Shown: positions 37,455 through 60,219 of the stretch, in pieces | Position numbering within the stretch: position 1 is the stretch's first letter | Layout: the number at the start of each line of letters is the position of its first letter | Source: Patescibacteria group bacterium | GTDB taxonomy: Bacteria; Patescibacteriota; Microgenomatia; UBA8517 | Length of the DNA: 64,000 nt | Assembly (NCBI GenBank): GCA_041742135.1 | Contig: JBGSJG010000001.1 | Location: 131,151-195,150 of the forward strand | Reading direction: 5' to 3' | The notes under the pieces: generated by a model | What the model saw: the letters and a program-made list of their open reading frames with translations, nothing else | What the model was told of the DNA's origin: nothing | Databases searched by the model: none | Position numbers and translations under genes: made by a program

Positions 37455-37457
37455 AGT

Positions 37458-39251: not shown

Positions 39252-40349
39252 GTGAAGATGAAAACAACCGTTTTACAAAAAGATTTGAATAAAATATTGT
39301 CTATTTCTTCTCGTTTTGTTTCTCCTCATGCAGCACTCCCAGTCCTTTCAAATTTCAAGATTCACACTAAAGGCGCAAAACTAATAATTGAAGCTACAAA
39401 TCTTGAAATGTCGATCTCTGGCTCAATCGGAGCACAAACCACGGAGGAAGGTGAAGTGGCAATTCCAGCACGCGTTTTAACTGATGTTGTTTCCAATCTT
39501 TCAGGAGAAAAAATTGAGCTTTCGCTTGATGGAGAAAACCTAACTGTTGAATCTGAAGGTTTTAGTGCGCAGGTTTTGGGCTTAAATGCTTCGGAATTTC
39601 CGGAAGTGCCAAGCGCTGCTGATAAGGCTGTTGAAATCCCCAAAGAAGAGTTGTTGAATGCTGTTTCTAAAGTCATTTTTGCAAGCTCGGGGGACGATAC
39701 ACGTCCTGCTTTGGCAGGGGTTTTGTTTTATTTTGAAAGTGAAAACCTTTCTCTTGTAAGCTCTGACGGCTTTAGGCTGTCTAGGAAAATTGTTAAACAT
39801 AAATCGCCCGCAAGCTTTAAGTTGATTATCCCGAAAAATATTCTCCTTGAGCTTGTAAAAATCGGAAAAGATGCCAAGAAGCTTTCCTTGCATGTTAACC
39901 AAGATGATAAACAGATTATTTTTTTAGTAGACGATATCGTTTTATCTAGTAGGTTGGTGGAAGGGGAGTATCCGCCATACGAGAAGATTATTCCCGAGTC
40001 GGGAAGTACGGTGGTAAATGTTTCAAAGGTGGATCTGCAAAAAGCGGTTAGGCTTGCTTCAGTTTTTTCACGCGATGGGGCTAATATTGTTACTTTAGAG
40101 ATTAAAGAGGGGAGTGTGCGTGTTTTGGGCGAAAGCGCTAAGTCGGGAAGTCAGGTTAGTCTTGTTGCGGCAAAGCTCATCGGGCCCGAGCTTTCAATTT
40201 TATATAACTACCGATACCTTGAAGAGTTTCTAGGTGTCGTGAGCGGGGAGAGTGTCGAGATGCGTTTTAACAGTCCCACTGCCGCTGGGGTGTTTCTAGA
40301 TTCTTCAGATGGTTTCTATCTCCACCTGATCATGCCAGTGAAGAGTTAA
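39252..40349 (+). CDS. dnaN: DNA polymerase III beta sliding clamp
   Basis: About 365 aa with the three-domain clamp pattern (MKMKTTVLQKDLNKILSISSRFVS… at the N-terminus), directly downstream of dnaA. Confidence 0.9.
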   Translation: MKMKTTVLQKDLNKILSISSRFVSPHAALPVLSNFKIHTKGAKLIIEATNLEMSISGSIGAQTTEEGEVAIPARVLTDVVSNLSGEKIELSLDGENLTVESEGFSAQVLGLNASEFPEVPSAADKAVEIPKEELLNAVSKVIFASSGDDTRPALAGVLFYFESENLSLVSSDGFRLSRKIVKHKSPASFKLIIPKNILLELVKIGKDAKKLSLHVNQDDKQIIFLVDDIVLSSRLVEGEYPPYEKIIPESGSTVVNVSKVDLQKAVRLASVFSRDGANIVTLEIKEGSVRVLGESAKSGSQVSLVAAKLIGPELSILYNYRYLEEFLGVVSGESVEMRFNSPTAAGVFLDSSDGFYLHLIMPVKS

Positions 40350-41395
40350 TTTGTTAAGCTTTTAGCACTCATAATAAATTTACATAATGTCTTATTGTTG
40401 TTATCTAACACAATCTCTCCAGTTAACATAAATACTGGCTGGAGAAAACTTAAGTAGTTTTCGGTTTTTTCCATATACACAAGCTCGATCGCACTTAGCT
40501 CTATTGGTTTTTGGTTTAATATGTCAGAGTCTGTTATTTTTAAGGTCTGGTCTTGGCACTGGTAGAGAATTGCGGTCTTTGATGCTTGGCGCTCCAGCTC
40601 CTGAACTTTCATGGTTTTTATTGTTTCCTTTTCATTGTATGTTGAGTCGTGTTGAAGCCTTACGTGTGCAACCTCGTATTTGGAGTTTAAAACAACATCT
40701 ATAAGTCCTTCTGAAGATAAAGACAATATCGGATATCCTGCTGCATTTTTAGTAAAGGAAACCGAAACAGCGTTGTAGTCGGTGGAGTTTGGCACAAACT
40801 CATCAGAAATCAACAAAGGTTCGACACGTTGCGGTACCAGATCGCCAACTGGAAATGTTTTTATTCTTTCAAGGAAATCTTGAGCGGAGTTTAAGGCGGT
40901 AGTTTGGTCGGGCAGACCTGTAAATGGCTCATCTGTAAAGGAATATGTCTTATACTCAATCTTGCCGGAATAAGATTCGATCCTAAGCGACCTACTTGTT
41001 TCGGAAAACATAAAAACCTTTGCATTTTCTGAGCCAAAAACAAGAGGTTCACCTTCGAAACCGAAGTCTACTCCGATTTTGTCGACAGTGGATTTATCAA
41101 GTTGTATTGAATCAGACGAGAAGATTGGCAATTGGTCTGGGATTTCGAAATCTGCAAATTTTTCAAAGCCGTTGAAAACAAAGCCTTCCATGCTGGGGGA
41201 CTTTAAAATTGGAAGGCTGGTTATCGCTGGTTCATTGGTGGGAGGTATGTTGCCGATGTCTGTGTCTTTGTCTCTGTTTTGTTTAATGATTAAAAAGATC
41301 AACACTAAGGAACACAAAATTATAGTAGCTAAAAACAAGCCCCTTTTTGTAAATTGTATTTTTGAAATTTTTATCATGGTATTGTGGTCCCACAA
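40346..41395 (-). CDS. Hypothetical bitopic membrane protein, the last gene of the T4SS-like operon (VirB8-like topology)
   Basis: N-terminal TM (LFLATIILCSLVLIFLII), then a 300-aa extracytoplasmic domain. Overlaps the M23 gene by 22 nt, consistent with being in the operon. Confidence 0.4.
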   Translation of the reverse strand: MWDHNTMIKISKIQFTKRGLFLATIILCSLVLIFLIIKQNRDKDTDIGNIPPTNEPAITSLPILKSPSMEGFVFNGFEKFADFEIPDQLPIFSSDSIQLDKSTVDKIGVDFGFEGEPLVFGSENAKVFMFSETSRSLRIESYSGKIEYKTYSFTDEPFTGLPDQTTALNSAQDFLERIKTFPVGDLVPQRVEPLLISDEFVPNSTDYNAVSVSFTKNAAGYPILSLSSEGLIDVVLNSKYEVAHVRLQHDSTYNEKETIKTMKVQELERQASKTAILYQCQDQTLKITDSDILNQKPIELSAIELVYMEKTENYLSFLQPVFMLTGEIVLDNNNKTLCKFIMSAKSLTN

Positions 41396-42372
41396 TTGGT
41401 GGTGCAGCCTCGCAGTATTGACGCAGGGATATAAGGAAATTGCATCGGAATTGGTGATCCCACAAACCGATCATCAAGACCAGCTGCAGCTGGTCTAAAT
41501 TCGTAATGATCATGAATACTGTTTGCATATCCGGTGTCACCCACTACTCCAAGTATGGTTCCTCGAGTTACTGGAATTTGGAAAACTTCGTCCGTAACAG
41601 GATTCCATATGTTTGATGAAATTGTCGTAAAATGTACATGTCTGGTTCTGTAAGGCACTCCATTTGAGCATTCTCCCAATATGTCCACAAATAAGCCATC
41701 ATATCTGTCTGTGCCGGCCCATCTTACAACTCCGTCGTGAGTTGCGATAATTGTGTGATTTGGTGTTATAAGTTGTCCTGAAGACAGTCCAACATCTATA
41801 GCTTCAAGGCCAAAATGCGTCCAGCCGCTGGGGGTGAAAGGTCCTTGTTGGATCCAATAGGCTTGACCCGAGCCAGTTGTGACAGGCCACCCAGAAGGTC
41901 CTCCCGATGGGCAATCCTGATAACCTTCTGTGCCACCATCTGTCACGATCGTTCCTCCTCCAGGCGCTACATAGGCCCCAGAGTTGATAATAAACAACAT
42001 GAAACCTATAAAAAGAACCAGTACCATAGCGGCTCCTATGAGAAAACCAAAAGAGATAGTTGCCGCTTGTGCGACTGCTGCCCCAAATGCTGCGGCTGCA
42101 TTAACAAAAGCAAAAGGGATTGCTCCAATCACGCGACCCACATCTTTTAATCCTTTTGTTGCTGCCGCCCCAAGAAGATTGCCCACAAACGCTCCGAGGA
42201 TGTTTCCAATCACAGGCACAGCCGAACCCAGAGTGCTTCCAAGTGCACTCCCAATAGCTTTGGCTGTCGCCGTCTGTGCAATTTTTTGGCCAATTGCTTT
42301 TCCGGCTGTTTTGCTTATAGCCGTTTGAGCGGTTCTTTCAACCCTTCCTGGCTGCTTGTTTTTGTCTTCCAT
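41374..42372 (-). CDS. Membrane-embedded M23/LytM-like peptidase with a Gly/Ala-zipper N-terminal region, a candidate cell-wall hydrolase for the T4SS-like machine
   Basis: The N-terminal 130 aa are Gly/Ala-rich amphipathic/TM (…IGNILGAFVGNLLGAAATKG…). The C-terminus has HTIIATHDGVV…, a TRHVHF-containing segment, and …GDTGYANSIHDHYEF (HxH), resembling the M23 active-site arrangement. Confidence 0.55.
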   Translation of the reverse strand: MEDKNKQPGRVERTAQTAISKTAGKAIGQKIAQTATAKAIGSALGSTLGSAVPVIGNILGAFVGNLLGAAATKGLKDVGRVIGAIPFAFVNAAAAFGAAVAQAATISFGFLIGAAMVLVLFIGFMLFIINSGAYVAPGGGTIVTDGGTEGYQDCPSGGPSGWPVTTGSGQAYWIQQGPFTPSGWTHFGLEAIDVGLSSGQLITPNHTIIATHDGVVRWAGTDRYDGLFVDILGECSNGVPYRTRHVHFTTISSNIWNPVTDEVFQIPVTRGTILGVVGDTGYANSIHDHYEFRPAAAGLDDRFVGSPIPMQFPYIPASILRGCTTNCGTTIP

Positions 42373-42373
42373 T

Positions 42374-44287
42374 TTATCTAATTTTGGCTGCAGCTACCGC
42401 GACTTGCTCGCTTGAGATTGTTTGCTGTTTTTGAGCCATGTCTTGAGGCCTTGTTGTCACAAATTCATACTCCTCTGGAGAAGCAACAATTTTAATTGGT
42501 GCGTGATGAGGCCCGGCAAAAAGGATACCTTCACCAATGTCGGCGGCAAGTAAAAGTTGACGCTCCCCTTGGGACAAATAAAACACCTCACCAATCTTGT
42601 CGATAGCTGCGGGGGACTGGCGCAAGAGAAGCCTCATGGCGGCGTTAGTTACCACAGCCTTTCCAATGTCATGGTTTAGGAAGTCCTCGACGTCCTGAGT
42701 GATTGTGGTAAGCCCTAGATAGTATTTACGGGCCCTCTTAGCGATGGACCACATAAATTGCGCCGAGTCTTGATATCGCATCATATGCCAGGCCTCATCC
42801 ACAATAAGTAAACGACGCTTGATATCGCGCCGCACCTTTGTCCAGATAAAATCAAGAATGATAAACATGACAACCGGGCGAATGGCGTCTTCTACATCGC
42901 GTACTGAAAAAACTGTATAAGGATTTTTGATATCGATGTTGGTTTGCTGGTCAAACACGCCGACGTAGCTTCCTTTAACAAACTTCTCGATACGTGCCGC
43001 CAAGTCCAAAGCGTCAGTGGTTTCCATGCCGATAAGGGATTTGTATAAGTCTTCAATCAGTGGTGGCTCTAGCTTTTGTGTTTCCGGATCGGAAGTAATA
43101 CCTTTGGCGCGGTAAGCATTCATAAGCGCGCGGTCGAGTAGGGCCTCTTGGGTTGGGGTAATCTCGCCCATAATGACTTTAAAAAGTGAATGAAGCGTTA
43201 GAATTTTAAGACCCAGCTGATCTTCACCTTCGACATATACTTGGCTTAAGTCAAAAGGGTTAATTTTGGAAGGGGAGGACGCGCTAAAAACTATGTACTC
43301 ACCACCCGCAGCCTGAGCCAATGCTTTGTACTCGTTTTCAGGATCAATCACGATTACCTCGGTTCCAAGCATCAAAGAACGTACGCTTTCAAGTTTCACA
43401 AAGAAAGATTTTCCAGCACCTGAGGTAGCAAAAACTACCATGTTGCTGTTTTCAAGTTCAAAGCGATCAAAGATAATAAATGAATCGTTTTGTGAGTTTA
43501 TGCCGTACAAAACTCCACGGTCGCTTGAAAGCTCGGCAGTTGTGAAAGGAAATGTTGTCGCAAGGGAAGTGGTGTCCATATTGCGGCTGACAAGTAATGT
43601 ATCGCGGGCAAATGGAGCTGCTGACGAAAACGCCTTTTCCATGTCAAGAGCCGCAAGCTTTGCTGAAATTAAAACCGAACCCAAAGTGGACTCGATGCGT
43701 TTGGTCACGCTGTCAAGCTCGTCTGGGCTTGTTGCAGGAATTGTTATATAGAAGGAAAACTGGAAAAAGCGCTCGGCACCTTTGACAAGAAGATCTTGAA
43801 GGACTTTAGCGTCTTCAAGCTTAGCTTCTGTTCCGGGGTTTACAATTTTACCCCTTTGAATATCAGTCGACATTTCAGCTTCCATCTCAGTAATCTTGCG
43901 GCGTAGCTCGGACAAAATTTCCTGTCCCTCAACTGGATAGATGAAAAATGATATATCCAAGCTGTGGTCAAAATTTATAATTGGGTTTAGCCAACCCGGA
44001 GATACAAACCTGGGGTAGCCTGAAACATAAAGCGTTCTAAAATAGATGTCGTTAATCTTGACGTGATCAAAGCTTACTTCCATCTGGCTTGGGGCGATCA
44101 GATCAGTCGGGCTCATGGCGCGCTCTTCGGCGGAGTCAAAAGGTAGCTTGACCAATGGCTTTTCGGGTTTGGGAATTTTGTAGCCAAAGTAATCAGAAAA
44201 ATTAGGGTCCTGCTCTACTGGGGCAGGAGGTGTAACCGCTGAAGCGGCAACTGGTTGATTTTTGGTTTTTAGTATAAATAACTTCAT
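42374..44287 (-). CDS. virB4: VirB4/TraC-family conjugal-transfer-type ATPase, C-terminal portion including the ATPase domain
   Basis: Walker A VVFATSGAGKSFFVK and Walker B RRLLIVDEAWHMM (the DEAW typical of VirB4), and …LGLTTITQDVEDF…. The N-terminal part carries the YFRTLYVSGYPRFVSPGWL motif of Gram-positive-type VirB4. Confidence 0.8.
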   Translation of the reverse strand: MKLFILKTKNQPVAASAVTPPAPVEQDPNFSDYFGYKIPKPEKPLVKLPFDSAEERAMSPTDLIAPSQMEVSFDHVKINDIYFRTLYVSGYPRFVSPGWLNPIINFDHSLDISFFIYPVEGQEILSELRRKITEMEAEMSTDIQRGKIVNPGTEAKLEDAKVLQDLLVKGAERFFQFSFYITIPATSPDELDSVTKRIESTLGSVLISAKLAALDMEKAFSSAAPFARDTLLVSRNMDTTSLATTFPFTTAELSSDRGVLYGINSQNDSFIIFDRFELENSNMVVFATSGAGKSFFVKLESVRSLMLGTEVIVIDPENEYKALAQAAGGEYIVFSASSPSKINPFDLSQVYVEGEDQLGLKILTLHSLFKVIMGEITPTQEALLDRALMNAYRAKGITSDPETQKLEPPLIEDLYKSLIGMETTDALDLAARIEKFVKGSYVGVFDQQTNIDIKNPYTVFSVRDVEDAIRPVVMFIILDFIWTKVRRDIKRRLLIVDEAWHMMRYQDSAQFMWSIAKRARKYYLGLTTITQDVEDFLNHDIGKAVVTNAAMRLLLRQSPAAIDKIGEVFYLSQGERQLLLAADIGEGILFAGPHHAPIKIVASPEEYEFVTTRPQDMAQKQQTISSEQVAVAAAKIR

Positions 44288-45018
44288 TTTTTAGTATCTT
44301 TCTCAACCTCTAGTATTACAGGTTCTTTCTTTTCTTTAACTGCCTCGGCTGGCGGGTTATATACGTTATAATACAACTCTGTCACTTGCTCGCTACTTAG
44401 GTGGCGAAGGCGTAGTCCCAAACGTGCAGCCTGGCGAATCAAATGATCGCGTTTAGGAAAAAGTGCAATCTTTGCTTTTTTGACCACAAATTCTTTTGTG
44501 TAAGGAAGTGCCGCGCTTCTTTTAGACAACATCTTAAAAGATTGAGAAAGCCCAAGCTCAAGCGGCGAGAAGGGAATAACCAAAAAGAATCGCTTGCCCA
44601 AGACGTTTCTTTTTTTGGTAGTTTCGATGACGAAATTGTAATAACTATCCATAAGGAATTTCAGCTTGGGGCTCTGAATTTGCTTTGCTGACTCCTTTAA
44701 GTATTCCAAATACTGGGTAATGTCCTTTCTTTGTGTACGGATGACAATTTGAATCGAAAAGGAAAGACTGTTAATAAGCGCGGCATATGCCGCCACGACC
44801 GCTTCTTGCTCGTTATCGCTTAAGAGACCAAAGTTAAGCGAAGTTGACTCAAGAACAACAGCCGCCCCGCCATCTTTGTATAAAACAACCCCGTCAACAA
44901 TATCTGCAATAGGAAGATGAGCTTGAGTGGTAGTCACAAGCGGCCTGTTTGGTGCATTAAAAATTGGAACTTTTGAAAAAACGTTTTTTACAGGTGATAT
45001 TTTTGGCATATTAAACAC
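44284..45018 (-). CDS. VirB4 N-terminal-domain protein, a separate ORF translationally coupled (ATGA overlap) to the ATPase ORF
   Basis: LPIADIVDGVVLYKDGGAAVVLESTSLNFGLLSDNEQEAVVAAYAALINSLSFSIQIVIRTQRKD matches the start of Gram-positive VirB4/PrgJ/TcpF-type proteins. Its stop TGA overlaps the next ATG. Confidence 0.6.
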   Translation of the reverse strand: MFNMPKISPVKNVFSKVPIFNAPNRPLVTTTQAHLPIADIVDGVVLYKDGGAAVVLESTSLNFGLLSDNEQEAVVAAYAALINSLSFSIQIVIRTQRKDITQYLEYLKESAKQIQSPKLKFLMDSYYNFVIETTKKRNVLGKRFFLVIPFSPLELGLSQSFKMLSKRSAALPYTKEFVVKKAKIALFPKRDHLIRQAARLGLRLRHLSSEQVTELYYNVYNPPAEAVKEKKEPVILEVEKDTKK

Positions 45019-46027
45019 TCCAAACCGCGCGGTAAGGCGCGGCAGAATCGGGTAAAGCGTCTTTGGATTTTATCGCAATTGGCATTATTAGCTCCCCAGT
45101 GGTCCTAAAACTTAAAGGCTCAAAGTTTAAACCTTCCTTTTCAATTGCGATTTTGTATTCACCGTTAGGAAGTGGAGTGACGATCATAAAATGCCCAGCT
45201 TTGTTGGTTTTGAGAGCTCGAACAGGGCGACCGTCTGTGTCTGTAATTTCAAGTATTGCTCCTTCAACAATTTTCCCAACTGAATCCATCACTTGCCCAA
45301 CAACCGTGTTTGGCATAGTAGGAGGAGAAGGTGGTGCTGCCTCTGGTGAAAAGTCTGCGTTTTGAGTTTGTGGAGTCGTGCTTTGGGTAAGTGGCGCGGT
45401 AACCACTGAGGTTGTGACTGGTGTTTGTGTAGGAGGCTGGTTAAAGCCGGCAACCGGCACTTGAACAGAGGGAGCAGTTGGAACAACAAGAGGTTGTTTT
45501 TGCTCACTAGGGGCAATCGGTGCCACTGGGGTTACTGGTGGCGGCGGGGTTTCGGCTACAGCAGGAGAGCCCGCGGTATGCTTACCTCCAAGCATATGGG
45601 AAAGCTTGGAAAGAAAATCTTTCTCCTGTGCTTCTAGGTTGCGGGTGGCGTTATCTGCAGGCAAACTTTGAGGCACTTCTTCAACAGGAGTGTCTGCGCT
45701 AGCTTGTGTGTCAGCCGCAAAATACTGATCCGGGCTTCCTGTTTTTTTCCAAACAAACAAAGTTGGTGCATAGATTGACCTAAAAAATGCAACCAACCAC
45801 TGCTCAAGAGGCCGGTCTTGGATGGGCAAAAAGGCAAATGCTGCTCCAGCGACTACAGAAATCACAATCATCGGCCACTTAAAAAAGCCGGGCAAAGGGA
45901 GCGAATAAATTATAAGGCCCAAAACCGCGCCAACAGCAAGTTGGAAAAACTGCTTCAAAGTCATGTCTCCCACAAGCCGGAATTGGTAAGAGCTTATTTG
46001 TTGAGGTACAGGGTGTTGTTCAAACAT
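45011..46027 (-). CDS. VirB3-like two-TM protein fused to a Pro/Thr-rich linker and a C-terminal carboxypeptidase-regulatory-like beta-sandwich domain
   Basis: The N-terminus has 2 TM helices and …DRPLEQWLVAFFRSIYAPTLFVW…, a VirB3/TrbD-like layout directly upstream of VirB4. The linker is PPPVTPVAPIAPS…. The C-terminus (…DTDGRPVRALKTNKAGHFMIVTPLPNGEYKIAIEKEGLNFEP…) is CarbopepD_reg/transthyretin-like. Confidence 0.5.
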   Translation of the reverse strand: MFEQHPVPQQISSYQFRLVGDMTLKQFFQLAVGAVLGLIIYSLPLPGFFKWPMIVISVVAGAAFAFLPIQDRPLEQWLVAFFRSIYAPTLFVWKKTGSPDQYFAADTQASADTPVEEVPQSLPADNATRNLEAQEKDFLSKLSHMLGGKHTAGSPAVAETPPPPVTPVAPIAPSEQKQPLVVPTAPSVQVPVAGFNQPPTQTPVTTSVVTAPLTQSTTPQTQNADFSPEAAPPSPPTMPNTVVGQVMDSVGKIVEGAILEITDTDGRPVRALKTNKAGHFMIVTPLPNGEYKIAIEKEGLNFEPLSFRTTGELIMPIAIKSKDALPDSAAPYRAVWSV

Positions 46028-46135
46028 TTTTTAAGATTTTAAAAATCTAGTATTCTACTATATTCATCTTACCTTGTGAAAGGTTCCTTTCAAGTAGAGG
46101 GATATTTTCACAAAAAATGAGGTTTGTGGTAAAAT

Positions 46136-48568
46136 TTGGCCATGACAACTGAACATGGTGATGATCCGATGTCTCCTAGGCCGGAGGAATCTGAATTTGA
46201 AGCAAGAAGACTTACTGGGGAGAGAGGGTCTATTTATCGAGTGGAACTGTCGCGTTTTCCTGAACTTCTCGATCCAAGGGCTGTGGTGATACAAGGTAGG
46301 GAATTTATCGGGCAGATGGTAGACACCTTTTACGAAACAGGGGAGACCGTGAGTCCATATGTCGTTCAGGACACAAAACGTAGGACCAGAGAGAAGCCGG
46401 AATTATATCGTGACATTATGGAGACAGGCGCTTATTCTTTTACTGACGAAGAGCTGAGAGCTGGCCTAGTAGAGCGCCCACAGCAAACACTATGGATGCA
46501 AGTTCCTGATGCCTATATTGCAAGATTGTCTTTACCTGCTGGTGATCCCCAAAAAGTAGACATTGTTGACGATGGAACAAAGAAATATTGGTTAGTCGAT
46601 GGTCAACGTATGCCCTTTGCAGACAACGGTGAGCTTATGAGGCGAACAAAAGGCGAGAAGGCTGAGTCGAATCGATTTTATGTTGGTGTTGAGTCGCGAG
46701 GTGTTAGCAAAGAAGATGCTCGCAGGAATCGCGAGGTGTTAGCACATTCAATTGAAGGTGTTGGTGTAATTCTTGAAGCTTGGGATAATTTAATACAAAA
46801 AACTCACGAACAAGACCTTTTTGCTGATAGTGACGAAAATTACGTTAAACAGAAATTTTTAAGGATTGGCAAGGTAATAATGAGGGCACGGTATTACGCT
46901 GAAATCTTTAGAGCCCCAGAGACCCGAGAGGGTCTTGCGCCTGCTGGTGCTAAGCTTGAGCAAGCGGTTCTTGCTTGGCAGGATTTGCTTCAAAATAGAG
47001 CGGTTGTTGAAATTGAAATCCCCAATCCTAATAAACCAGAGGAAACTATTAAGGCAAAACGAGTCATGCCAAACGCTCACGCTTATGCCAAAAACTGGGG
47101 AATGCGTGAACTAAACACCGAATATGTTCAAAGTCGTGTTGCTCAGCAGTTTGCTGGTGAGCGAGCCCCTGAAGGAGTGGACCATCAACACTTCCGCCAT
47201 GTGCGAGATAAGGACAATAGGAGAATTGCACGGCAAGCGGCGATTTTGGTGGACCATTTTGATTTAGATGCTGCTTATCCTTTTGACCTAGTATGGGAGA
47301 GAGACGCTTCAGGTAAGATGCGAATAACGAGTGTTGTTGAGGAGGTTGCCTATGTTGACTCTGCAAAACTTACACACCCTACTGCGCGAAGGGTCAAAGA
47401 GCGTTTCGGGGATGTGTTGGTTGTTTCAGGTATTCATGATCGGAGGAACGCGGAGAGCAGGCGGGACCACCCAAGAGCTTCTGGGTCACCCGTAACTCTT
47501 TATACACTTCCCGAATTGTCGAGTGATTTTTTGAATGTCACCTCAGTGGAAGTGGTTGCTTTTAATAAGGGCGACCTTGAAAAACGGAAAACAAATCGCG
47601 AGCAACAAGTTAGAAGAAAAGTTATTAAAGTAACCATAGATCAAAGAGCTTTTGGTGCAAAAGATCCCAAAGAAGACAAAAGAGTTTTTTATGGGACTTC
47701 TGACTCTCGGCGTTGGAGTTATGTTAGAAAAGCGAAAGAGGCAGGAAAGAAATCCGACGACGACGTTTGGGTATACGAGGTAACCGGTTTGGGAGACAAT
47801 CGAATTTGGGATGAAGTGCAGGCGGTAGTTAAAGTGGATGGTGAGACAACAGCGTTTGCAAGGGAAGACATTCTTGCGATTACACCAGTCGACAGCAAAG
47901 GAAAAACTGCAAGAGAACTTATGGCTGATGGGGTAGAGAAACTCGAGGTTGCCATGGGCACAACCACAAATGCGACTGAAATTCCAAAAGGTCTTTTGGA
48001 ATTCTATGCTTGGGCTGGAATTTACGGCGAGTTTACAAGGGAGGATTTCGAAAGACAGTTTGCTGAGTATACAGACAAGGACCCTGCGAAATTAAGAAGC
48101 ATTAGTAAGCAGCTTGGCGTGGCAGTTAATCAACTTGCTAACACACACCAACTATCGCGCGATACTGTAGCTAAATTAGAAGAATACCTGAGAATTTCGT
48201 TAATGGCGGGTTTAGCTGCTGCAATTATAGTTGGTAAAGACGTTAAAACAGGCACTCGATCTGAGGAGCAACCTACTCTGATTCCTTTAGAGGCTCGAGG
48301 TAAAGATAACATATTTATACCACTAAAGAGAGCTATGCTAAAAGCGGAGTTTGTTAAAAGAAAAGAAGGCAAGCTTGGAAACGAACCAGAATGGGCAGAC
48401 AAAGACGAAGAGGGACTTTTTGATTTTATTGTTAACAGCCAAAACTTGGGGCCGATGAGCCCGTGGGACTTGGCAGAAAACGGTAGACGTTTTTTTACTG
48501 ACGCACAACTTGAAGAGCTACGACCTTTGTACAGTATTCTCTTTTTGCCTGGCAGCACAAGGGAATAA
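46136..48568 (+). CDS. Hypothetical 810-aa soluble protein (no TM, no Walker motifs), divergent from the T4SS-like operon
   Basis: Long ORF, rich in Arg/Glu/Asp. No recognisable catalytic motif. GC appears higher than in the neighbouring genes. Confidence 0.5.
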   Translation: MAMTTEHGDDPMSPRPEESEFEARRLTGERGSIYRVELSRFPELLDPRAVVIQGREFIGQMVDTFYETGETVSPYVVQDTKRRTREKPELYRDIMETGAYSFTDEELRAGLVERPQQTLWMQVPDAYIARLSLPAGDPQKVDIVDDGTKKYWLVDGQRMPFADNGELMRRTKGEKAESNRFYVGVESRGVSKEDARRNREVLAHSIEGVGVILEAWDNLIQKTHEQDLFADSDENYVKQKFLRIGKVIMRARYYAEIFRAPETREGLAPAGAKLEQAVLAWQDLLQNRAVVEIEIPNPNKPEETIKAKRVMPNAHAYAKNWGMRELNTEYVQSRVAQQFAGERAPEGVDHQHFRHVRDKDNRRIARQAAILVDHFDLDAAYPFDLVWERDASGKMRITSVVEEVAYVDSAKLTHPTARRVKERFGDVLVVSGIHDRRNAESRRDHPRASGSPVTLYTLPELSSDFLNVTSVEVVAFNKGDLEKRKTNREQQVRRKVIKVTIDQRAFGAKDPKEDKRVFYGTSDSRRWSYVRKAKEAGKKSDDDVWVYEVTGLGDNRIWDEVQAVVKVDGETTAFAREDILAITPVDSKGKTARELMADGVEKLEVAMGTTTNATEIPKGLLEFYAWAGIYGEFTREDFERQFAEYTDKDPAKLRSISKQLGVAVNQLANTHQLSRDTVAKLEEYLRISLMAGLAAAIIVGKDVKTGTRSEEQPTLIPLEARGKDNIFIPLKRAMLKAEFVKRKEGKLGNEPEWADKDEEGLFDFIVNSQNLGPMSPWDLAENGRRFFTDAQLEELRPLYSILFLPGSTRE

Positions 48569-48637
48569 AACAATCTTCTTATACAAAAAACCCCACCCAA
48601 GTTTGCGATAGTGAAATTGTCTTTTTGAGTGAAGAGT

Positions 48638-50272
48638 CTAAAGTGTTTTTGGTGTTCGATCTCCTCTACGGCCAATGGCCTTAACAACCCCTGTACTACT
48701 TTCTCTTAAGACTTGAGCACCCATACCTTCACCGGTTGACAGCAGAGTTCTGCCGACAGCATTTCTGAGCCACCCTTCACCTGATTGCATCCCTGCTCCT
48801 CTGAGTGCCAGTCCGTAGCCAATACCACTCTTTGCACCACCTGCGGCAGCCCCAATCGCCATTCCAGCGAGTCCTGCTCCAATCATACCTGAACGTTCTC
48901 TAGACATTTGCCCTGATATTATCAAGGATTTAATGTTATTAGCAAGACCTGGAGCCATCAGAAGCAGTGTTGAGCCAATAAATATTGCAAGCAGAGTAAC
49001 ATCTATACCACTAAAGCCGGGGAAGCTGATTTGCCCTGAGTTGACCAAAGGCTCGACACCATACGGATTTCCAGCGACAGTGTTTTCTAGAAGTCCACCA
49101 GATCCGCCCCCCATACCAAAAAGTAAAATATGGGCGAACATTACAGCAACTGAAATAGTTACGAATATAGATGCATGCCCAACAAGAGATCGAAGCATTT
49201 GAGTAAACATATTCCCACTTGGCGAGGCGACATATCCTAGTGCAGCGAAAGGCAAAGCAATAACATGGAGGATAATCATCACATATGTTCTTAGAAATAT
49301 CCAAAATATGCGAATGATGGCCAAAATAATCAATAGAAGCATGACCACCAACACTAGAATGCCAGCCACTATCCCGAGCACCCACCCAACCACTGGAAAC
49401 CCTCCAAAACCGCTTTTAAGAACAATCCAAACAACTGCGAGACCAAAATTCAATAATCCTCCGCCAATATCGTTGATAAGATTAAATATTGCTACGGGAT
49501 CTAGGCTGGATACTCCAGATTGCGACACGACAGCAGCAATGACTCCTTGAATAACATAGGACATATCAATTACAAACCCTGCAATTGCGTAGGAAAAAGT
49601 AATTAAAATAAAACCAATAATTACTCGAGGAATAGCTGAGGTGACACTGACACTTACTTGTGGCGAGATTCTCGCTCTAAACATGACCATGAAGGCTAAA
49701 AGAATAACTGCCAACGCCATAAGCGCGTAAGCCGCATTTCTAGAGGCTGCCCAAAGTTTTAAGATTGGTGCTAATGACCCGAAACCAAATCCTGCCTGTT
49801 GAGCATATGCTGGCTGTATTCCAATATTGTCCATAATTCCAGCAACATACGAAACCCCAGAGACAGGCCTGGTGGTTATCATTAAGTCAGAAAGCCGTGC
49901 AAATTCCAGAAAACCAAGACTCTTGCGAGGGGAAAGGGCGGTATCGGGTGAAGATGCGTCTGCAGTTGTAACACAACCCACAAAGTCGTCAAGCGCTGGG
50001 TGTTGTGTAGCACACTCAGAAATGTCGTGCTCGATGGCAAAATTTATTAGCGAATAAATGACCCACCAAACTTGTGCATGTGTGTATCTTTCACCAAAAA
50101 TTTCATTGTCAGGGATCGCTGTGTTGTTAACTTTGTCATTAAATTGCTGAAAGGTAGGAGCCCACCATTCGGCCTGAGCAGAGACAGTAGAGGGTTTAAC
50201 TGCTCCTATGAGAAAGATGGACGACAGTAGTGCGGCGACTAAGAATTTCTTAAACATCGATGATAATATCAT
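48638..50272 (-). CDS. VirB6/TrbL-like polytopic membrane protein
   Basis: A signal peptide, an about 130-aa extracytoplasmic domain, then at least 7 TM helices and a Gly-rich C-terminal tail. The architecture and its position next to VirB4/pilins fit VirB6. Confidence 0.5.
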   Translation of the reverse strand: MILSSMFKKFLVAALLSSIFLIGAVKPSTVSAQAEWWAPTFQQFNDKVNNTAIPDNEIFGERYTHAQVWWVIYSLINFAIEHDISECATQHPALDDFVGCVTTADASSPDTALSPRKSLGFLEFARLSDLMITTRPVSGVSYVAGIMDNIGIQPAYAQQAGFGFGSLAPILKLWAASRNAAYALMALAVILLAFMVMFRARISPQVSVSVTSAIPRVIIGFILITFSYAIAGFVIDMSYVIQGVIAAVVSQSGVSSLDPVAIFNLINDIGGGLLNFGLAVVWIVLKSGFGGFPVVGWVLGIVAGILVLVVMLLLIILAIIRIFWIFLRTYVMIILHVIALPFAALGYVASPSGNMFTQMLRSLVGHASIFVTISVAVMFAHILLFGMGGGSGGLLENTVAGNPYGVEPLVNSGQISFPGFSGIDVTLLAIFIGSTLLLMAPGLANNIKSLIISGQMSRERSGMIGAGLAGMAIGAAAGGAKSGIGYGLALRGAGMQSGEGWLRNAVGRTLLSTGEGMGAQVLRESSTGVVKAIGRRGDRTPKTL

Positions 50273-50300: not shown

Positions 50301-53300
50301 TTAAGGTTGGCAAGTTAGTGACTTAGGGCTAACCGGCATTGGACAAGCGGAGAAATAATCCCAAGCTGTAGATGCTATCGCATCAAAGTATGTTGGTGAA
50401 GCAAAGCTCGTGCAACTTGATCCTCCTCGGAAGAAAATCTCCATGGCAATTTCCATGTCAGACCAACCTCTTGCTCTCAGTGTTGTAAAGCAGTTTGGGT
50501 AAGTTGATTGATAGGGGGTTTGGCTGTTCCAGATTTGTAAAAATCGAGTGTATTGAGCGTTGAAATTTTCAGGCGGGTATGCGGCATTGTTGATTCCAAA
50601 GTCCTGCCACAGTAGTGGCGAAGCTGTGTAGTTGCTGCAAGCGCTTTCGTGAGCCCAGATGGCTAACGCAAACGTTGGGTGAACGCCTAACGCGACCGCT
50701 CGGGAAACCACGTCGTTGTAACATCTTCGACCGTTTGACACCCCTCGGGAGTCCCATTGTTCACAGATTCTGATTGCATTATCTTTAAATGAACCAAGGT
50801 ATTGTGCAGGTAACGCAGTGTCTGGAATATCTGTCCTACAATTTGCTTCTGAGGCAATAGGTGGCGCAGGTTCGTCTGGTAGCTCGTCTTCCGAGAAGGT
50901 TTCATTTCCACAAAGCCCCAGAGGTCGAAGTGCACACTGAATACCTTCTAGGAAATAATCCTGCACACTTCCGATGTGAGGGAAATAAAACTCAGCTGCA
51001 CTACCGGGGCGGTTATTGCCAGACAGAGCTGAAACAGAGGCGGACGATCCATTTTCGACACTGATACTATTGGCTAAATACCCAGAGGTTGTTTCAGCCG
51101 GGATGTCTTTTATTGTTGAAAGAGGAGCGTCGGCGCTAATTCTAGGAAAAATACGTCTAAACACTGACCACGATCCCGCTACGAGCCGTTGCCAGACACT
51201 GTCTGCTTCTGGTGTATTTGCTGACATCGCAAGTGGAATGGTAATAGTTTTTTGGCAAGTGGTTGGGTATGTCATAGCTGCTTCTCTACAACCAACATTG
51301 TCAAATACTCCAGCGGGGGGGAGTGGAAGGACACATCGGCCAAGTCCTGGGGTACAGCTTGGGTCAGGATTCCAGGTACCCCCTATTCCGCAAGCTGCGG
51401 GCGACTCGCAATATCCAATTAACCAACAAGCGTTGTAGAGGTTTTGGTCTACTGAAGGTGTGAAATCACAGGTAAAGTCAGCGGTATAGCTTAGTGTGGC
51501 TTGGAGTGGATTTTCTCCAGCTACACCCTCTCGTTCAAGTTCGCCGTACAAATCATCTCCAGCATTTGATCTTGTGTCTTGGAATTCGCAACCCGGCATG
51601 CGTTGTGGGAGAGTGATGTCATCAGTCTTAGGGCTGTCAAGTGCACCAGTATATTCACCTGGAATGAATGTGCGCTGTGTAACCTCTGCCAATTCTTTCG
51701 TTTCTTCCATGTGAGCAAAATATAGATTTCTGCTGGCGCTGCCTGTTGGTGAATCACTTCCTTCTTGAGTTACAGTAAAATCTGTAATAGTTACCCCTTC
51801 GCCAGAAGGTAAGCCTATCGGGCTAAAAGAGGCCATGCCTATACGATCTTCTGTGGAAGAATATGGTACATATCCCAGAGCTTCTGGGCTTGAGAATGTT
51901 GTTGCCCCCATAGTTTTTAGAAATGTGTTAGCGAGCACCCCAGTCAGCCGGTTGTAGGTATTGCTTTGGCTGTAACACGCTTCGGGCGAATCGACAGAGC
52001 CGCACTCCACAATTTGATCATGTCTTTGGGTGCCAACATTATATCCTTGCTGAAACCTAAGGCCGTCAAATTTGTTTTCGTAGTAAGGAATAAAGCCAAA
52101 ATACCAACCTGCTATGTATCTGTCACCACTTTGAACTCGTTGGGGGAGAAGTTTTTTGATCGGGCCAGACATCGAAAGGAGCAGGTCTTGGTCGCTGGGA
52201 AAGCTAAAAAAACGCTCTTCAGCTCTTTGCACTACACCATTTAAGTACCAACTGGCATACCCCGCCATACGGTCTTTGTAGGTGAGTGTCGCGTTGGGAC
52301 CAGTTGCGTTGGGAACCAGTTGAGTATTTCCCATTATAGGCAACTGGGCTCTACTCAAATCGATTTCGGCATTTAAGTTACTATCTACGATAAACCTACA
52401 AGTTTGCGTCTCACCCGCGTCCCCGGTGCAGCTACCGGGGACTGCTTGCCCTTGGTTAACCTCAAGCGTTTCAATTACCGTAAAATCATTACCACACTGA
52501 TTAACGCCGCTGGCGGTTTTGTTGCACGGGTTTGCTGGGTATGGGCGAAGAGAGTGGTATTCTGGGTCGGTTACCGTGTTGCAATCCCAATTTTCGATTT
52601 CGTATGGCGTTGTAGTAATACAAGCAGGAGTTGCCCATAGCTCTGTGGCTGGTTCGTTAGGACCAGCAATTACCCACAGGTCGCCCGATATTTTTGAATT
52701 AACGTCTGCTAGAAAGTTGGCGTACTCCACTGGGTTTGCGAAATCACAAGTGTTTCCCGCACACACCCTAAGAATTGGTTTTTTACCCAACTCGTGAGCT
52801 CTGTTTGCAAAGTCTGCAACCGTTTGCACAGCTCCTCGGGAATAAGCAATTTCAAGTATCCAGTTAACATTGCCACTGTAGCCAACCGCAGTATTCACAA
52901 ATGTTCCAGGAGTGACCTCCATCGCCGAGTTAACACCTGCCTTGCCCGGATTGGTGCTGGTAATAGTGTCAAACTCCGCCTTATCAAGTTGGTGGCGAGT
53001 AAATTCTTGATTTCCGCCGAGGGCATTAAAATAGTTAATTGATGAAACCTTCGGGTCGTTTGCAGTGATTTGGTGTTGAGAAGCGGCAAGGCTGATCGAC
53101 CCAGGATTGGCATCATAATTAAAGTCACCATATTCTGTGAAGAATGTCGGGCCTCCAGTAAAGCGAGTTTTCCAAGATACACCCCGACCATCGGGTATGT
53201 CCGCTCGGGAATACCAGTCGTACGATGTAAAACTAAAACCACCACCCGGGACGTGTGAGTAAGAGTTACCCGCAAAGCCGTCAAGCCTACTGAAATCACC

Positions 53301-53585
53301 CCTTTCGCCGGGTTGAGTAGTCATCAAATCAAATATTTGCCATTCTACAGAGCTTGTTAGATTAAATGCGGGAGAGAGAAGCTTAATGTGGCTTAAATTT
53401 CCAGCACGAGTAGTAAGGGCGTTCATGTATATTGCCAAGTCGCGCGCAATGCACTGCACGTCAGGCTCGCCTGTAGTTTGAGCTTGTATTGCTGGGGGGG
53501 CAGAAGCTCTAGGCAACAAAACAACAACTAATGCAGTCAAAACAATTGTTGAACACAAAAGAAGCTTGGTGGCTAAATGCTTCAT
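50301..53585 (-). CDS. Large (1094 aa) Cys-rich secreted protein with a glycoside-hydrolase-like (NEP motif) region and a C-terminal lytic-transglycosylase-like (…HES…) region
   Basis: Signal peptide MKHLATKLLLCSTIVLTALVVVLLP. The segment …KKPILRVCAGNTCDF…WVIAGPNEP resembles a GH5/GH26-type strand-4 NEP. The C-terminal …FALAIWAHESACSNYTASP resembles an SLT catalytic Glu-Ser region. More than 30 Cys. Confidence 0.45.
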   Translation of the reverse strand: MKHLATKLLLCSTIVLTALVVVLLPRASAPPAIQAQTTGEPDVQCIARDLAIYMNALTTRAGNLSHIKLLSPAFNLTSSVEWQIFDLMTTQPGERGDFSRLDGFAGNSYSHVPGGGFSFTSYDWYSRADIPDGRGVSWKTRFTGGPTFFTEYGDFNYDANPGSISLAASQHQITANDPKVSSINYFNALGGNQEFTRHQLDKAEFDTITSTNPGKAGVNSAMEVTPGTFVNTAVGYSGNVNWILEIAYSRGAVQTVADFANRAHELGKKPILRVCAGNTCDFANPVEYANFLADVNSKISGDLWVIAGPNEPATELWATPACITTTPYEIENWDCNTVTDPEYHSLRPYPANPCNKTASGVNQCGNDFTVIETLEVNQGQAVPGSCTGDAGETQTCRFIVDSNLNAEIDLSRAQLPIMGNTQLVPNATGPNATLTYKDRMAGYASWYLNGVVQRAEERFFSFPSDQDLLLSMSGPIKKLLPQRVQSGDRYIAGWYFGFIPYYENKFDGLRFQQGYNVGTQRHDQIVECGSVDSPEACYSQSNTYNRLTGVLANTFLKTMGATTFSSPEALGYVPYSSTEDRIGMASFSPIGLPSGEGVTITDFTVTQEGSDSPTGSASRNLYFAHMEETKELAEVTQRTFIPGEYTGALDSPKTDDITLPQRMPGCEFQDTRSNAGDDLYGELEREGVAGENPLQATLSYTADFTCDFTPSVDQNLYNACWLIGYCESPAACGIGGTWNPDPSCTPGLGRCVLPLPPAGVFDNVGCREAAMTYPTTCQKTITIPLAMSANTPEADSVWQRLVAGSWSVFRRIFPRISADAPLSTIKDIPAETTSGYLANSISVENGSSASVSALSGNNRPGSAAEFYFPHIGSVQDYFLEGIQCALRPLGLCGNETFSEDELPDEPAPPIASEANCRTDIPDTALPAQYLGSFKDNAIRICEQWDSRGVSNGRRCYNDVVSRAVALGVHPTFALAIWAHESACSNYTASPLLWQDFGINNAAYPPENFNAQYTRFLQIWNSQTPYQSTYPNCFTTLRARGWSDMEIAMEIFFRGGSSCTSFASPTYFDAIASTAWDYFSACPMPVSPKSLTCQP

Positions 53586-53622: not shown

Positions 53623-53961
53623 TCAATTGTAGATGTCGAAGTTGAGAATTGCGGGTACACCAACAAAATTGGCAATTATTTGAACAATCAAAAACGCCAA
53701 AGCCAAAACTACTGTTCCCGCTATGGCATAAGTAATTGTGCTTTTGGCTCCCGCAACTTGCCTTGGGTCGCCACCTGAGAAAATAAAATAGAATCCTCCG
53801 ACAATAAGCATTACAAAAAGGATTATTCCACCAATTGGGAGTAGTGATGAAACAATTCTGCCAAAAACATCCGTGAGAGAGTAGAGTCCCGAAGCGCAAT
53901 TTTCACCGACAGCCCCAGGTGGGCACGGCGTGGGATCTTGCGCAAAAATAATTGATAGCAT
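53623..53961 (-). CDS. VirB2/TrbC-like pilin paralogue 1
   Basis: About 110 aa with two hydrophobic helices separated by the SGGDPRQ loop. Same design as the tandem array at 56.3-58.7 kb. Confidence 0.6.
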   Translation of the reverse strand: MLSIIFAQDPTPCPPGAVGENCASGLYSLTDVFGRIVSSLLPIGGIILFVMLIVGGFYFIFSGGDPRQVAGAKSTITYAIAGTVVLALAFLIVQIIANFVGVPAILNFDIYN

Positions 53962-54031: not shown

Positions 54032-54775
54032 GTGGTAAACATAAATATGGTTAAAAATAAGATTGATTTTCCGAACTACCCAGAGGTGAATAAAAAGAAC
54101 TTTAAGTCGTGGAACGATGACATGTTTCTGAAATACAACAACGAGCGCGTTTACAAGCACCCTAATTTGATAATTAGATATATTGAGAGGAAAAGAGTAG
54201 AAGCTTTAATACAATTTCTCGGTCGTATCAAAAGGTCAGACAAAATACTGGCTGCTGGTTGCGGGGAGGGATACATAGAAAAGAAGATTAATAAAGGAAA
54301 ACTCTTTTTGGTCGACATCTCGCCCCATGCAGTAGAGAGGGCCAAAAGGGGTCTGCACGATCTAAAAAATATTAAATATTTTGTCGCAGATCTTGAAAAG
54401 TTGCCCTTCCCTGATGGGTATTTTGATAAAATCGAATGCTCGGAGGTCATAGAACATGTTTTATCTCCAGAAAAGATGTTAATAGAATTCAAGCGAGTTT
54501 TGAAATCCGACGGAATTTTGGTGGTCAGCTTTCCCAACGAGCCTCTGATCAATTTTCTTAAAAGCGCTTTGTTAAAGATAGGCATACTCCATCTAGTTTT
54601 TCCAAACATTCCCGACAACATGCTGGAAGAGTGGCACTTAAGATCTATGGACTTAACAACTTTTAAGAATTTTACGAAGACTGATTGGAAAATCAAATCG
54701 TTCGCAGCCGCACCGAATAAACTGTTGCCGATAAGATACGTTGTATTGTGTGAGAAAAAAGTGACTCATTTTTGA
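54032..54775 (+). CDS. Class I SAM-dependent methyltransferase (Methyltransf_11-like)
   Basis: Motif I ILAAGCGEGY and post-I LFLVDIS, plus …YFDKIECSEVIEHV…. Confidence 0.75.
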   Translation: MVNINMVKNKIDFPNYPEVNKKNFKSWNDDMFLKYNNERVYKHPNLIIRYIERKRVEALIQFLGRIKRSDKILAAGCGEGYIEKKINKGKLFLVDISPHAVERAKRGLHDLKNIKYFVADLEKLPFPDGYFDKIECSEVIEHVLSPEKMLIEFKRVLKSDGILVVSFPNEPLINFLKSALLKIGILHLVFPNIPDNMLEEWHLRSMDLTTFKNFTKTDWKIKSFAAAPNKLLPIRYVVLCEKKVTHF

Positions 54776-56357: not shown

Positions 56358-56708
56358 TTACGGAGTAACAACGCTACCAATATTAAAATTCTGAATAATA
56401 TTGATTCCAAAAATTGTGCTAATGAGTTGGGCGAGAGCCCAAGCTGAAAACACTACAACCAAACCGATAAGCGCGCTTGTAACCTGATTCCTAGCTGATT
56501 CAGTCTGGCCTTTATCTCCGCCGGACATAATCCACTTTATTCCTCCGAGAATAAGCATAAAGAAGAATACCAATCCTGCTATAACCAAAATACTGTTGAT
56601 TGCCCAAGAAATCATACCACCAACGGTGATATTGGCAATGGGGCCAAAATTAGTTGGCGCGGTTAAATTTATTGTGTCTTGTGCAAATACTGTTGATAAA
56701 AATGGCAT
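56358..56708 (-). CDS. VirB2/TrbC-like pilin paralogue 2
   Basis: Two TM helices flanking SGGDKGQ. RBS AAGGAGG upstream. Confidence 0.6.
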   Translation of the reverse strand: MPFLSTVFAQDTINLTAPTNFGPIANITVGGMISWAINSILVIAGLVFFFMLILGGIKWIMSGGDKGQTESARNQVTSALIGLVVVFSAWALAQLISTIFGINIIQNFNIGSVVTP

Positions 56709-56732
56709 AATTTAAATTCACCTCCTTTTATT

Positions 56733-56771
56733 GGTTTGCTTTATAAAAAAATAATATTTGTTAAGCAAACC
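56733..56771 (-). promoter_or_regulatory. Inverted repeat (9-bp stem, about 20-nt AT loop) immediately 5' of the RBS of pilin paralogue 2
   Basis: GGTTTGCTT…AAGCAAACC. No U-tract follows on the transcribed strand. Confidence 0.4.
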
Positions 56772-56873
56772 TTAAAATTCAATATACAAAATCTTTCTAT
56801 TATAATGGCAAAAAAGTATTTGTCAAATTTTCAAGAAAGACTATCTATTTATGAACTAAGATAGGGGAGCATG

Positions 56874-57263: not shown

Positions 57264-57264
57264 G

Positions 57265-57972: not shown

Positions 57973-57975
57973 TTT

Positions 57976-58281: not shown

Positions 58282-58322
58282 ATTTTGTATATCAAAACTG
58301 ACCCCCCTGCTTAGAGGGTTCT

Positions 58323-60218: not shown

Positions 60219-60219
60219 G

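Follow-up and report, generated by a model that had tools for sequence, protein, structure and literature searches.

Gene content of the locus

We analyzed a stretch of 64,000 nucleotides (positions 131,151 to 195,150 of contig JBGSJG010000001.1, assembly GCA_041742135.1; the whole stretch is hereafter called the window) and focused on one open reading frame (ORF) of its + strand. The product, 808 amino acids (aa) long from the ATG at 46142, is here referred to as X808. It represents an undescribed family for which no sequence or structural relative was found in the libraries searched, and its gene is embedded in a type IV secretion system (T4SS) locus. This locus is of a known kind, the Patescibacterial or monoderm (MPF-FATA-like) T4SS, and carries the marks of such systems: a VirB4 of monoderm type, PrgI/VirB3 and TrsD-like proteins encoded beside virB4, pilins, and proximity to dnaA and dnaN. 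On one side of the X808 gene lie prgI, trsD, virB4 and an M23-like peptidase gene, and on the other side the genes of a 544-aa protein, a 1094-aa protein and the pilins, all of them on the - strand. The homologous loci used for comparison are numbered L001-L011; L001, L002, L007, L009 and L010 have enough flanking sequence, and L003-L006, L008 and L011 are partial. The main features of the locus are the following (TM, transmembrane).

37716-39095, dnaA.
39252-40349, dnaN.
40346-41395, - strand, protein of 349 aa with a single N-terminal TM-like segment, last operon gene before dnaN.
41374-42372, - strand, membrane-anchored M23-like peptidase of 332 aa, candidate cell-wall hydrolase (PF01551, E 7e-5, below the Pfam cut-off; TM-like segments).
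42374-44287, - strand, VirB4-type ATPase of 637 aa (NF045971 CD1110-family VirB4, E 1e-111; PF19044, E 8e-32).
44284-45018, - strand, TrsD/TraC-like protein of 244 aa, akin to the N-terminal part of VirB4 (NF041427 TrsD, E 9.5e-7, below the curated cut-off).
45011-46027, - strand, PrgI/VirB3-family membrane protein of 338 aa with a C-terminal prealbumin-like domain (PF12666, E 3.3e-8; CarboxypepD_reg, E 6e-7; TM-like segments).
46136-48568, + strand, continuous ORF of X808, 810 aa if read from the TTG at 46136.
48130-48687, - strand, overlapping ORF of 185 aa with a TTG start, antisense to the 3' end of X808 and most likely spurious.
48638-50272, - strand, polytopic membrane protein of 544 aa (h544), convergent with X808 (many TM-like segments; grand average of hydropathy, GRAVY, +0.77; no Pfam match).
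50301-53585, - strand, exported acidic Cys-rich protein of 1094 aa (h1094) with 31 Cys; orthologues in L001, L002 and L009.
53623-53961, - strand, VirB2-like T4SS pilin of 112 aa (PF18895, E 1.6e-11).
56358-58664, - strand, array of six small VirB2-like pilin genes (pilin pattern in the translations; tblastn cross-matches of the 112-aa pilin to the arrays of L007 and L009).
58689-61918, - strand, three larger proteins (509, 256 and 302 aa) with a T4SS_pilin-like C-terminal domain (PF18895, E 0.0098, 9e-5 and 2.7e-6, at or below the cut-off).

VirB4 scored 374.6 bits against NF045971, whose curated cut-off is 325, and PrgI scored 34.4 bits against PF12666, whose cut-off is 27. The VirB4 function is split at 42374-45018 (- strand) into the 244-aa TrsD/TraC-like protein and the 637-aa ATPase, with 4-bp gene overlaps, and the same split is found in all related loci; the TraC-like family PF26593 was detected in the TrsD orthologues of L001, L007 and L010. 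The position of the M23-like peptidase agrees with the locus of Southlakia (PMC10633639). From its place in the locus, the 544-aa protein is probably the positional analogue of VirB6. The 1094-aa protein has no Pfam match and no PDB sequence match; its C-terminal AIWAHESACSNY has a likeness, by eye only, to the catalytic motif of lytic transglycosylases. A class I S-adenosylmethionine (SAM) methyltransferase (+ strand) and a 501-aa polytopic membrane protein (- strand) at 54032-56271 split the first pilin from the pilin array. No relaxase family and no type IV coupling protein (T4CP)/VirD4 family was found among the 39 window proteins scanned.

The window as a whole is housekeeping chromosome, encoding a UvrD/PD-(D/E)XK helicase-nuclease, RmuC, MetRS, DprA, glutamate dehydrogenase, GroEL, TsaD, LeuRS, YidC, Jag, DnaA and DnaN. 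The minimum of the cumulative guanine-cytosine (GC) skew adjoins dnaA, at 37000-38000 of the window, and oriC is therefore likely to lie there. Since the GroEL shares 76-79% identity with GroEL entries labelled Candidatus Woesebacteria or Microgenomates, the organism is a Microgenomates-group Patescibacterium. The T4SS locus starts right after dnaN. All T4SS operons to the right of oriC (40346-61918) are on the - strand, head-on with replication, and X808 alone is co-directional with dnaA and dnaN.

Start codon, promoter and composition of the X808 gene

The X808 gene is real. Its ORF runs uninterrupted over 46136-48568, as described in the original prediction, which was made from the sequence alone and counted 810 aa; the length of the product should be corrected to 808 aa, because the start is most likely the first ATG of the ORF, at 46142, and not the TTG at 46136. 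This choice is based on the position of the promoter and on the homologous loci. The candidate sites of the spacer between prgI and X808 are listed here.

46107-46135, + strand, putative X808 promoter, TTCACA-17 nt-TGgTAAAAT (extended -10; consensus scan, 10/12 match plus TG).
46052-46093, - strand, putative promoters of the prgI-trsD-virB4 operon, TTGAAA..TAAGAT and TTCACA..TAGAAT (consensus scan).
46034-46048, AGATTTT-a-AAAATCT, inverted repeat located 5' in the prgI operon, where the sequence is A/T-rich.
46077-46092, TGAAAGG-tt-CCTTTCA, inverted repeat lying across the -35 candidates for prgI.

The extended -10 element ends at 46135, so that the TTG at 46136 would abut it and the ATG is the likely start. 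The element TGgTAAAAT ends only 6 nt ahead of this ATG, which implies a leaderless mRNA. Homologues in L002, L003, L007, L009 and L011 have an extended -10 element 6-9 nt before the ATG, and near variants are present in L005 and L008. X808 and most of its homologues would thus seem to carry a leaderless promoter of their own. Moreover, many first-in-operon genes of the window, for example those at 3443-4417, 5231, 17040-18566, 25039, 27818, 35566-36042, 50301-53585 and 61969, have an extended -10 element (TGnTAnnnT) 5-9 nt before the start codon, and Shine-Dalgarno motifs are nearly missing from the window genes. These patterns suggest that leaderless initiation of translation may be the norm in the source genome.

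The spacer measures 108 bp from the prgI start codon to 46136, the length given in the original prediction for the divergent spacer to the VirB3-like gene, and 114 bp to 46142. The palindromes reported there as two and perfect do exist and are enriched over chance (3 inverted repeats observed in the spacer against 0.12 expected, P about 0.005 by mononucleotide shuffles), but they actually consist of 7-nt arms with spacers of 1-2 nt. AGATTTT-a-AAAATCT is not conserved in the other loci compared. The pattern TGAA-N8-TTCA recurs at the equivalent place in L002 and L008, and L002 likewise has TTGAAA...TAGAGT upstream of prgI. TGAAAGG-tt-CCTTTCA may be a candidate operator or merely promoter sequence.

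The divergent orientation towards the prgI operon, the enriched repeats of the 114-bp spacer and the recurrence of one of them in L002 and L008 would be expected if X808 were a sensor or regulator acting on the repeats of the shared spacer. We regard this as very unlikely, because no helix-turn-helix (HTH) or other DNA-binding domain was found in the family-library searches, a regulator of 808 aa would be large, the repeat found again in other loci coincides in part with ordinary -35 sequence, and the divergent adjacency is gone in L001, L007 and L009. In these three loci prgI is parted from the X808 homologue by small 23S_rRNA_IVP genes or by as much as 3.4 kb. A shared bidirectional promoter is therefore not family-wide, and the proposed co-regulation through a shared divergent promoter is not a feature of the family. 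At its other end X808 is separated by 69 bp from the convergent 544-aa gene, and no terminator hairpin was found in this gap.

The X808 gene is native in composition, not foreign. Its GC content is 0.448 against a mean of 0.436 over 43 window ORFs (z +0.44; whole window 43.3%), and relative to the window ORFs the z values are -0.98 for GC at third codon positions (GC3) and +0.71 for the codon-usage log-likelihood. Its tetranucleotide distance stands at the 74th percentile among windows of the same size. The earlier impression that the gene is GC-richer than its AT-rich neighbours does not hold, since all four measures fall inside the spread of the window. Local GC over 100 bp varies from 0.30 to 0.57, and this local swing explains the values of 47-57% that had been sampled before. 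A foreign or GC-rich origin is ruled out by these four tests. The local values up to 0.57, and otherwise just the earlier impression of a GC-rich gene, were what spoke for X808 as an island gene of recent acquisition, for instance an effector from a mobile element or phage. Besides the composition, this reading is contradicted by the absence of any tblastn match at E up to 1 in 72,556 plasmid and 50,697 phage records, by the absence of a PHROG match, and by orthologues that keep one chromosomal slot across deep divergence. Composition and conserved synteny together have already refuted it, and its probability is close to nil.

The X808 protein and its family

X808 is a soluble protein made in the cytoplasm. 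No TM-like segment was detected by a 19-residue hydropathy scan, and a motif scan found no Walker A ([AG]xxxxGK[ST]), HExxH or CxxC motif, in agreement with the description of the protein as soluble and free of TM segments, Walker motif and recognisable catalytic motif. Its N-terminus is proline-rich and acidic, not hydrophobic. The protein is also very charged, as had been stated, with 32% charged residues (D+E 16.8%, K+R 15.3%), an isoelectric point (pI) of 5.8, GRAVY of -0.63 and 0 Cys.

Searches of X808 against Pfam, PHROGs, NCBIfam and PADLOC returned 0 matches, and Pfam and NCBIfam searches with all 37 aligned members of the family returned nothing consistent. A profile search of PDB sequences gave noise only (E above 0.3), and no profile match was found to the described T4SS component families (VirB1-11, VirD4, TrsD, PrgF etc.). 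A word-index homology search yielded three proteins with 100, 60 and 54% identity, and the same search using the 37-sequence alignment returned only these three close proteins. With an exhaustive hidden Markov model (HMM) search, 40 clusters (50% identity) at E up to 1e-3 were recovered from 1.84 billion cluster representatives, 25 of them below 1e-30. Two pattern-based scans of GTDB genomes confirmed no locus, their peptide patterns probably being too narrow, and a metagenome scan gave two loci. The family appears to be confined to Microgenomates-type genomes.

Full-length members of the family have 630-890 aa and a single architecture. The shorter matches inspected start inside the family alignment and look like fragments, and no domain fusions were seen among the family matches. 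We also considered X808 as a split-off soluble domain of an extended VirB6 and rejected this, as no fused form occurs among these matches. Internal repeats are absent (hhalign among six segments of the family alignment, probabilities 1% or less).

Only D406, R416, E420, R445, G606, K656, P774 and F785 are invariant in 37/37 members. No Tyr, His, Ser or Cys is invariant across the 37 members; the best Tyr columns reach 28-32/37 and H443 reaches 31/37. A prediction from 3 sequences by AlphaFold had a predicted local distance difference test (pLDDT) score of 39 and was unusable, and the run with the 37-sequence alignment was used instead. Its five models agree, with mean pLDDT of 85.9-89.2, and the best one has pLDDT 89.2 and a predicted template modelling score (pTM) of 0.85. 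The model is a compact alpha/beta protein whose middle part is beta-rich and whose C-terminal module is helical; it also has long helices (e.g. 190-227) and inserted beta-hairpins. Uncertainty is limited to about the first 30 residues. The model can be divided as follows (all on the + strand; occupancy is that of the alignment).

46142-46240, residues 1-33, acidic proline-rich N-terminus (pLDDT <50 at 1-11 and 26-32; homologues have up to about 35 extra residues).
46241-46459, residues 34-106, N-terminal helical module (helices 45-66 and 72-92, pLDDT 90-96; family occupancy about 1.0).
46469-46696, residues 110-185, small beta-rich insertion (occupancy 0.34-0.36 in 37 sequences, about 1/3 of the family; pLDDT 66-79).
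46697-47581, residues 186-480, conserved core module (alignment blocks; pLDDT mostly 90-98).
47594-47956, residues 485-605, variable beta-rich module (strands 492-573; occupancy 0.5-0.7; conserved island 541-560 with W556-D557).
47957-48544, residues 606-801, conserved C-terminal helical module (G606, K656, P774 and F785 invariant; PLY near the end).

Conserved features are distributed along the protein. The motifs of the core module are EQD (223-225), NAPETxEGxxxxGxK (258-271), LPNxxAxxxN (309-318), DNxxAA...HWDxD (358-376), D406..K409..R416R417..E420 and RRxHPRxxG..P (440-457). In many distant members the C-terminal helical module aligns as a separate stretch. The term "domain-less" is therefore correct for the sequence libraries, in which no domain was found, but not for the predicted structure, which is compact and multi-domain at the scores given above. 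A Foldseek search of the model against PDB and BFVD gave no match, and the model suggests that X808 may have a new fold. Background composition together with a housekeeping function had been named in advance as what would speak against a special role; the composition is native, and neither a housekeeping function nor a known fold was found.

A positively charged or unstructured C-terminal tail had also been proposed for checking. The last 50 residues have a net charge of -3 and a pI of 4.6, are helical and are conserved to the end, the C-terminal 20-residue blocks being among the best conserved; helix 787-801 has pLDDT 94-96 up to about residue 800. The unstructured, positively charged tail of Vir-type substrates is thus not present on X808. 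This does not exclude transport, because the substrate signals of monoderm T4SSs are undefined.

Like the conjugative relaxases (MOB), X808 is a large soluble protein tied to a conjugation-type T4SS and is single-copy per system; in such a role it would act in processing and also be transported as a substrate. Unlike them, it has no relaxase match in Pfam or NCBIfam and no invariant Tyr/His motif in the 37 members. Without an invariant Tyr, His, Ser or Cys, X808 lacks the catalytic chemistry of known relaxases. A reading as relaxase or other enzyme was rejected: no nucleophile is invariant, and divergent members no longer have the HWDxD motif. X808 might still handle nucleic acid in another manner, as a non-canonical stand-in for the missing relaxase or coupling function that prepares or pilots DNA or RNA through the T4SS. 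Most Patescibacterial T4SS loci are without relaxase, and it has been left open explicitly that very different relaxases may await discovery (PMC12102498). The high charge of X808 fits such a role, as does the cluster of near-invariant or invariant basic residues (K409, R416, R417, R441 and R445) in 406-457. However, the overall pI is acidic, and no nuclease, primase, relaxase or DNA-binding family was matched by sequence profile or fold, so that together with the missing invariant residues we consider it quite improbable. Single members also matched Sul7d/7kD DNA-binding models weakly (E 0.03-0.045), which is probably noise.

Conservation of position and rate of divergence

The association of X808 with the T4SS, which the original prediction had drawn from neighbourhood, is borne out more strongly by the related loci: the gene lies inside the locus and has the same slot in every well-flanked one. 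In L001, L002, L007, L009 and L010 the X808 homologue lies on the strand opposite to prgI-trsD-virB4 and is convergent with a polytopic protein of 5xx aa, which is followed by a large exported protein and pilins; dnaA and dnaN are at the far end where the flank reaches. The partial loci agree with this layout. The orthologue of the 544-aa protein is directly 3' of the X808 homologue in L001-L004, L006, L007 and L009-L011, and even the weakest family members, P0040 (E 7e-6) and P0042 (E 6.6e-5), share the conserved slot. The head-on direction of the T4SS operons with a co-directional X808 is repeated in L001, L002 and L010.

Conserved position may also have another origin. X808 could be an unrelated passenger, that is, a lineage-specific chromosomal or housekeeping protein that lies among T4SS genes merely through synteny of the oriC region. 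It is co-oriented with dnaA, dnaN and replication, unlike every T4SS operon, its gene is native in composition, and dnaN is equally syntenic with the T4SS yet not part of it. Unrelated genes do interrupt the locus; in the window these are the methyltransferase and the 501-aa membrane protein, and in other loci 23S_rRNA_IVP genes. On the other hand, T4SS operons flank X808 on both sides in every locus, its slot is kept despite insertions and rearrangements around it, the family occurs in no other context among the 11 loci, and no known housekeeping family is matched. We therefore hold a passenger to be unlikely. From the embedding and the synteny, a dedicated role of X808 in the T4SS is probable.

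We then compared the divergence of the proteins of the locus. The values below are global identities (%) to the protein of the window, in the order L001/L002/L007/L010.

VirB4, 85/65/64/57.
TrsD, 72/51/50/41.
PrgI, 63/48/49/45.
DnaN, 56/39/-/37.
X808, 58/38/28/27.
h544, 47/36/33/33.
h1094, 36/30/31/26.

X808 diverges at about the pace of the membrane and exposed parts, and faster than the cytoplasmic and inner-membrane parts of the machine.

Comparison with known secretion systems

Patescibacterial T4SSs have a monoderm-type VirB4, TrsD, PrgI and pilin arrays, lie near dnaA/dnaN and are usually without relaxase (PMC12102498). The system is essential in the Saccharibacterium Southlakia epibionticum (PMC10633639); it has been proposed to serve a new purpose, possibly the export of proteins, and its substrate is not known (PMC10633639, PMC12102498). 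The locus of the window shares the hallmarks described for this MPF-FATA-derived clade (Southlakia SEML1_0006-0019; PMC12102498, PMC10633639): a monoderm VirB4, a separate TrsD-like protein, PrgI/VirB3, candidate cell-wall hydrolases and arrays of VirB2-like pilins. As in those loci, neither a relaxase nor a T4CP is encoded nearby, and the locus adjoins dnaA/dnaN. X808, however, is not among the components described (PMC12102498, PMC10633639). In Southlakia no gene of about 2.4 kb on the opposite strand follows prgI, and a 999-aa VirB6-like protein comes directly. X808 is therefore lineage-specific and not universal to Patescibacterial T4SSs.

Two groups of proteins from other systems are useful for comparison. 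CagA of H. pylori and VirE2 of Agrobacterium are large soluble non-NTPase cargos which are encoded in or beside the secretion locus, are lineage-restricted and are transcribed apart from the machine operons; the fold of CagA is without relatives. They have basic or disordered C-terminal signals and need a coupling protein and chaperones. X808 is likewise large, soluble, non-NTPase, located in the locus, lineage-restricted and a separate transcription unit, whereas its C-terminus is acidic, folded and conserved and no T4CP is encoded in the window. The second group comprises coupling proteins and platforms (VirD4/TcpA; DotL-DotM-DotN-IcmSW-LvgA), which X808 resembles only in the hypothesised role of selecting substrates at the cytoplasmic entrance of the channel. 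It has no P-loop, no N-terminal TM anchor and no similarity of sequence or fold to VirD4/TcpA or the Dot adaptors. At 808 aa, X808 is also larger than the known T4CP adaptors, which are small.

Possible role of X808

Our tentative preference, which we hold with limited confidence, is that X808 is a locus-encoded cargo of the chromosomal T4SS in Microgenomates/Woesebacteria-type Patescibacteria, or a pilot travelling with the cargo. On this reading X808 would be expressed apart from the two machine operons, under a leaderless promoter belonging to it alone. The VirB4/TrsD/PrgI complex would then recognise it on the cytoplasmic side, probably by its conserved core and C-terminal helical module, and X808 would be exported towards the host cell that these epibionts depend on, or into it.

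A cargo or pilot is slightly favoured over a cytoplasmic dock for several reasons. Most of the large soluble non-NTPase proteins that T4SS loci encode, for example relaxases, plasmid primases, VirE2 and CagA, are substrates of translocation. Moreover, X808 is the one gene that has remained a transcription unit apart from the others and in the opposite direction. It has diverged at a rate similar to that of the exposed T4SS parts, and its N-terminal and insertion regions vary. Cargo is thus preferred to a machine part because of what is generally known of T4SS loci, the separate transcription unit and the rate of divergence.

Several observations weigh against a transported X808. Its C-terminus is acidic, helical and conserved, with no basic or disordered tail, and a compact fold of 808 residues (pTM 0.85), if the model is right, would need unfolding for transport. 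X808 is single-copy, always present and fixed in position, as expected for a machine subunit. Furthermore, the oriC-T4SS region, including dnaN, is syntenic throughout, and position alone is therefore no proof of a functional link. No cultivated organism is known to carry the gene, and the Saccharibacterium for which transposon sequencing (Tn-seq) data exist has no gene of the size and orientation of X808 at that position.

Some of these points would suit a cytoplasmic accessory of the machine, an alternative only slightly less likely than cargo or pilot. Here X808 would be a non-ATPase dock or assembly platform at the base of the channel which binds VirB4/TrsD/PrgI, takes over the handling of substrates or pilins in a locus without coupling protein or VirB11, and is not itself transported. 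Its constant presence as a single copy in the fixed slot between virB3 and the gene in VirB6 position, its compact fold, which is modelled with confidence and bears highly conserved polar motifs, its C-terminus, which is folded and conserved, the lack of a secretion-signal-like tail and the lack of a T4CP in the window would all fit. However, X808 diverges much faster than its supposed partners VirB4, TrsD and PrgI, no other gene of the locus is kept on the opposite strand under a putative promoter of its own, and the Saccharimonadia run an essential T4SS without it. To our knowledge, no T4SS has a large soluble non-NTPase structural subunit, which also counts against an accessory.

The interest of the cargo or pilot reading comes from what is missing in these systems. 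The Patescibacterial T4SS is the first T4SS shown to be essential to its owner, its cargo is not known, and it lacks a relaxase and, in the locus, the coupling protein, which set the choice of substrate elsewhere (PMC10633639, PMC12102498, PMC12857230). Besides the VirB4 ATPase, X808 is the sole cytoplasmic protein strictly tied to the T4SS locus in Microgenomates-type genomes, and is therefore a concrete, clonable candidate for a cargo or a cargo receptor. It is conceivable, if somewhat doubtful, that X808 is the missing piece of the T4SS in Microgenomates: an essential cargo delivered to the host, or a new non-NTPase substrate receptor or pilot which replaces the pair of coupling protein and relaxase, built on a fold without relatives. 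In any case the Microgenomates form of a known T4SS gains a conserved soluble component in X808, the link to the T4SS being positional. Its carriers are uncultivated, and the cultivated Saccharibacteria do not have the gene.

Other observations in the related loci

The 509-aa protein encoded at 58689-61918 is Cys-rich, and all three larger proteins of this region are possibly pilins with large N-terminal extensions. SpoIID is encoded next after them, at 61969-63648, and the same order is found in L007. Small 23S_rRNA_IVP (PF05635) genes lie inside the T4SS loci of L001 (8860-9216), L007 (7014-7382 and 8467-8841) and L011 (4916-5266), where they adjoin the X808 homologue or prgI; none was noted in the locus of the window. 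L009 is located on a Joint Genome Institute (JGI) contig of 606,420 bp (Ga0209431_10000001), which is possibly a near-complete Patescibacterial genome.

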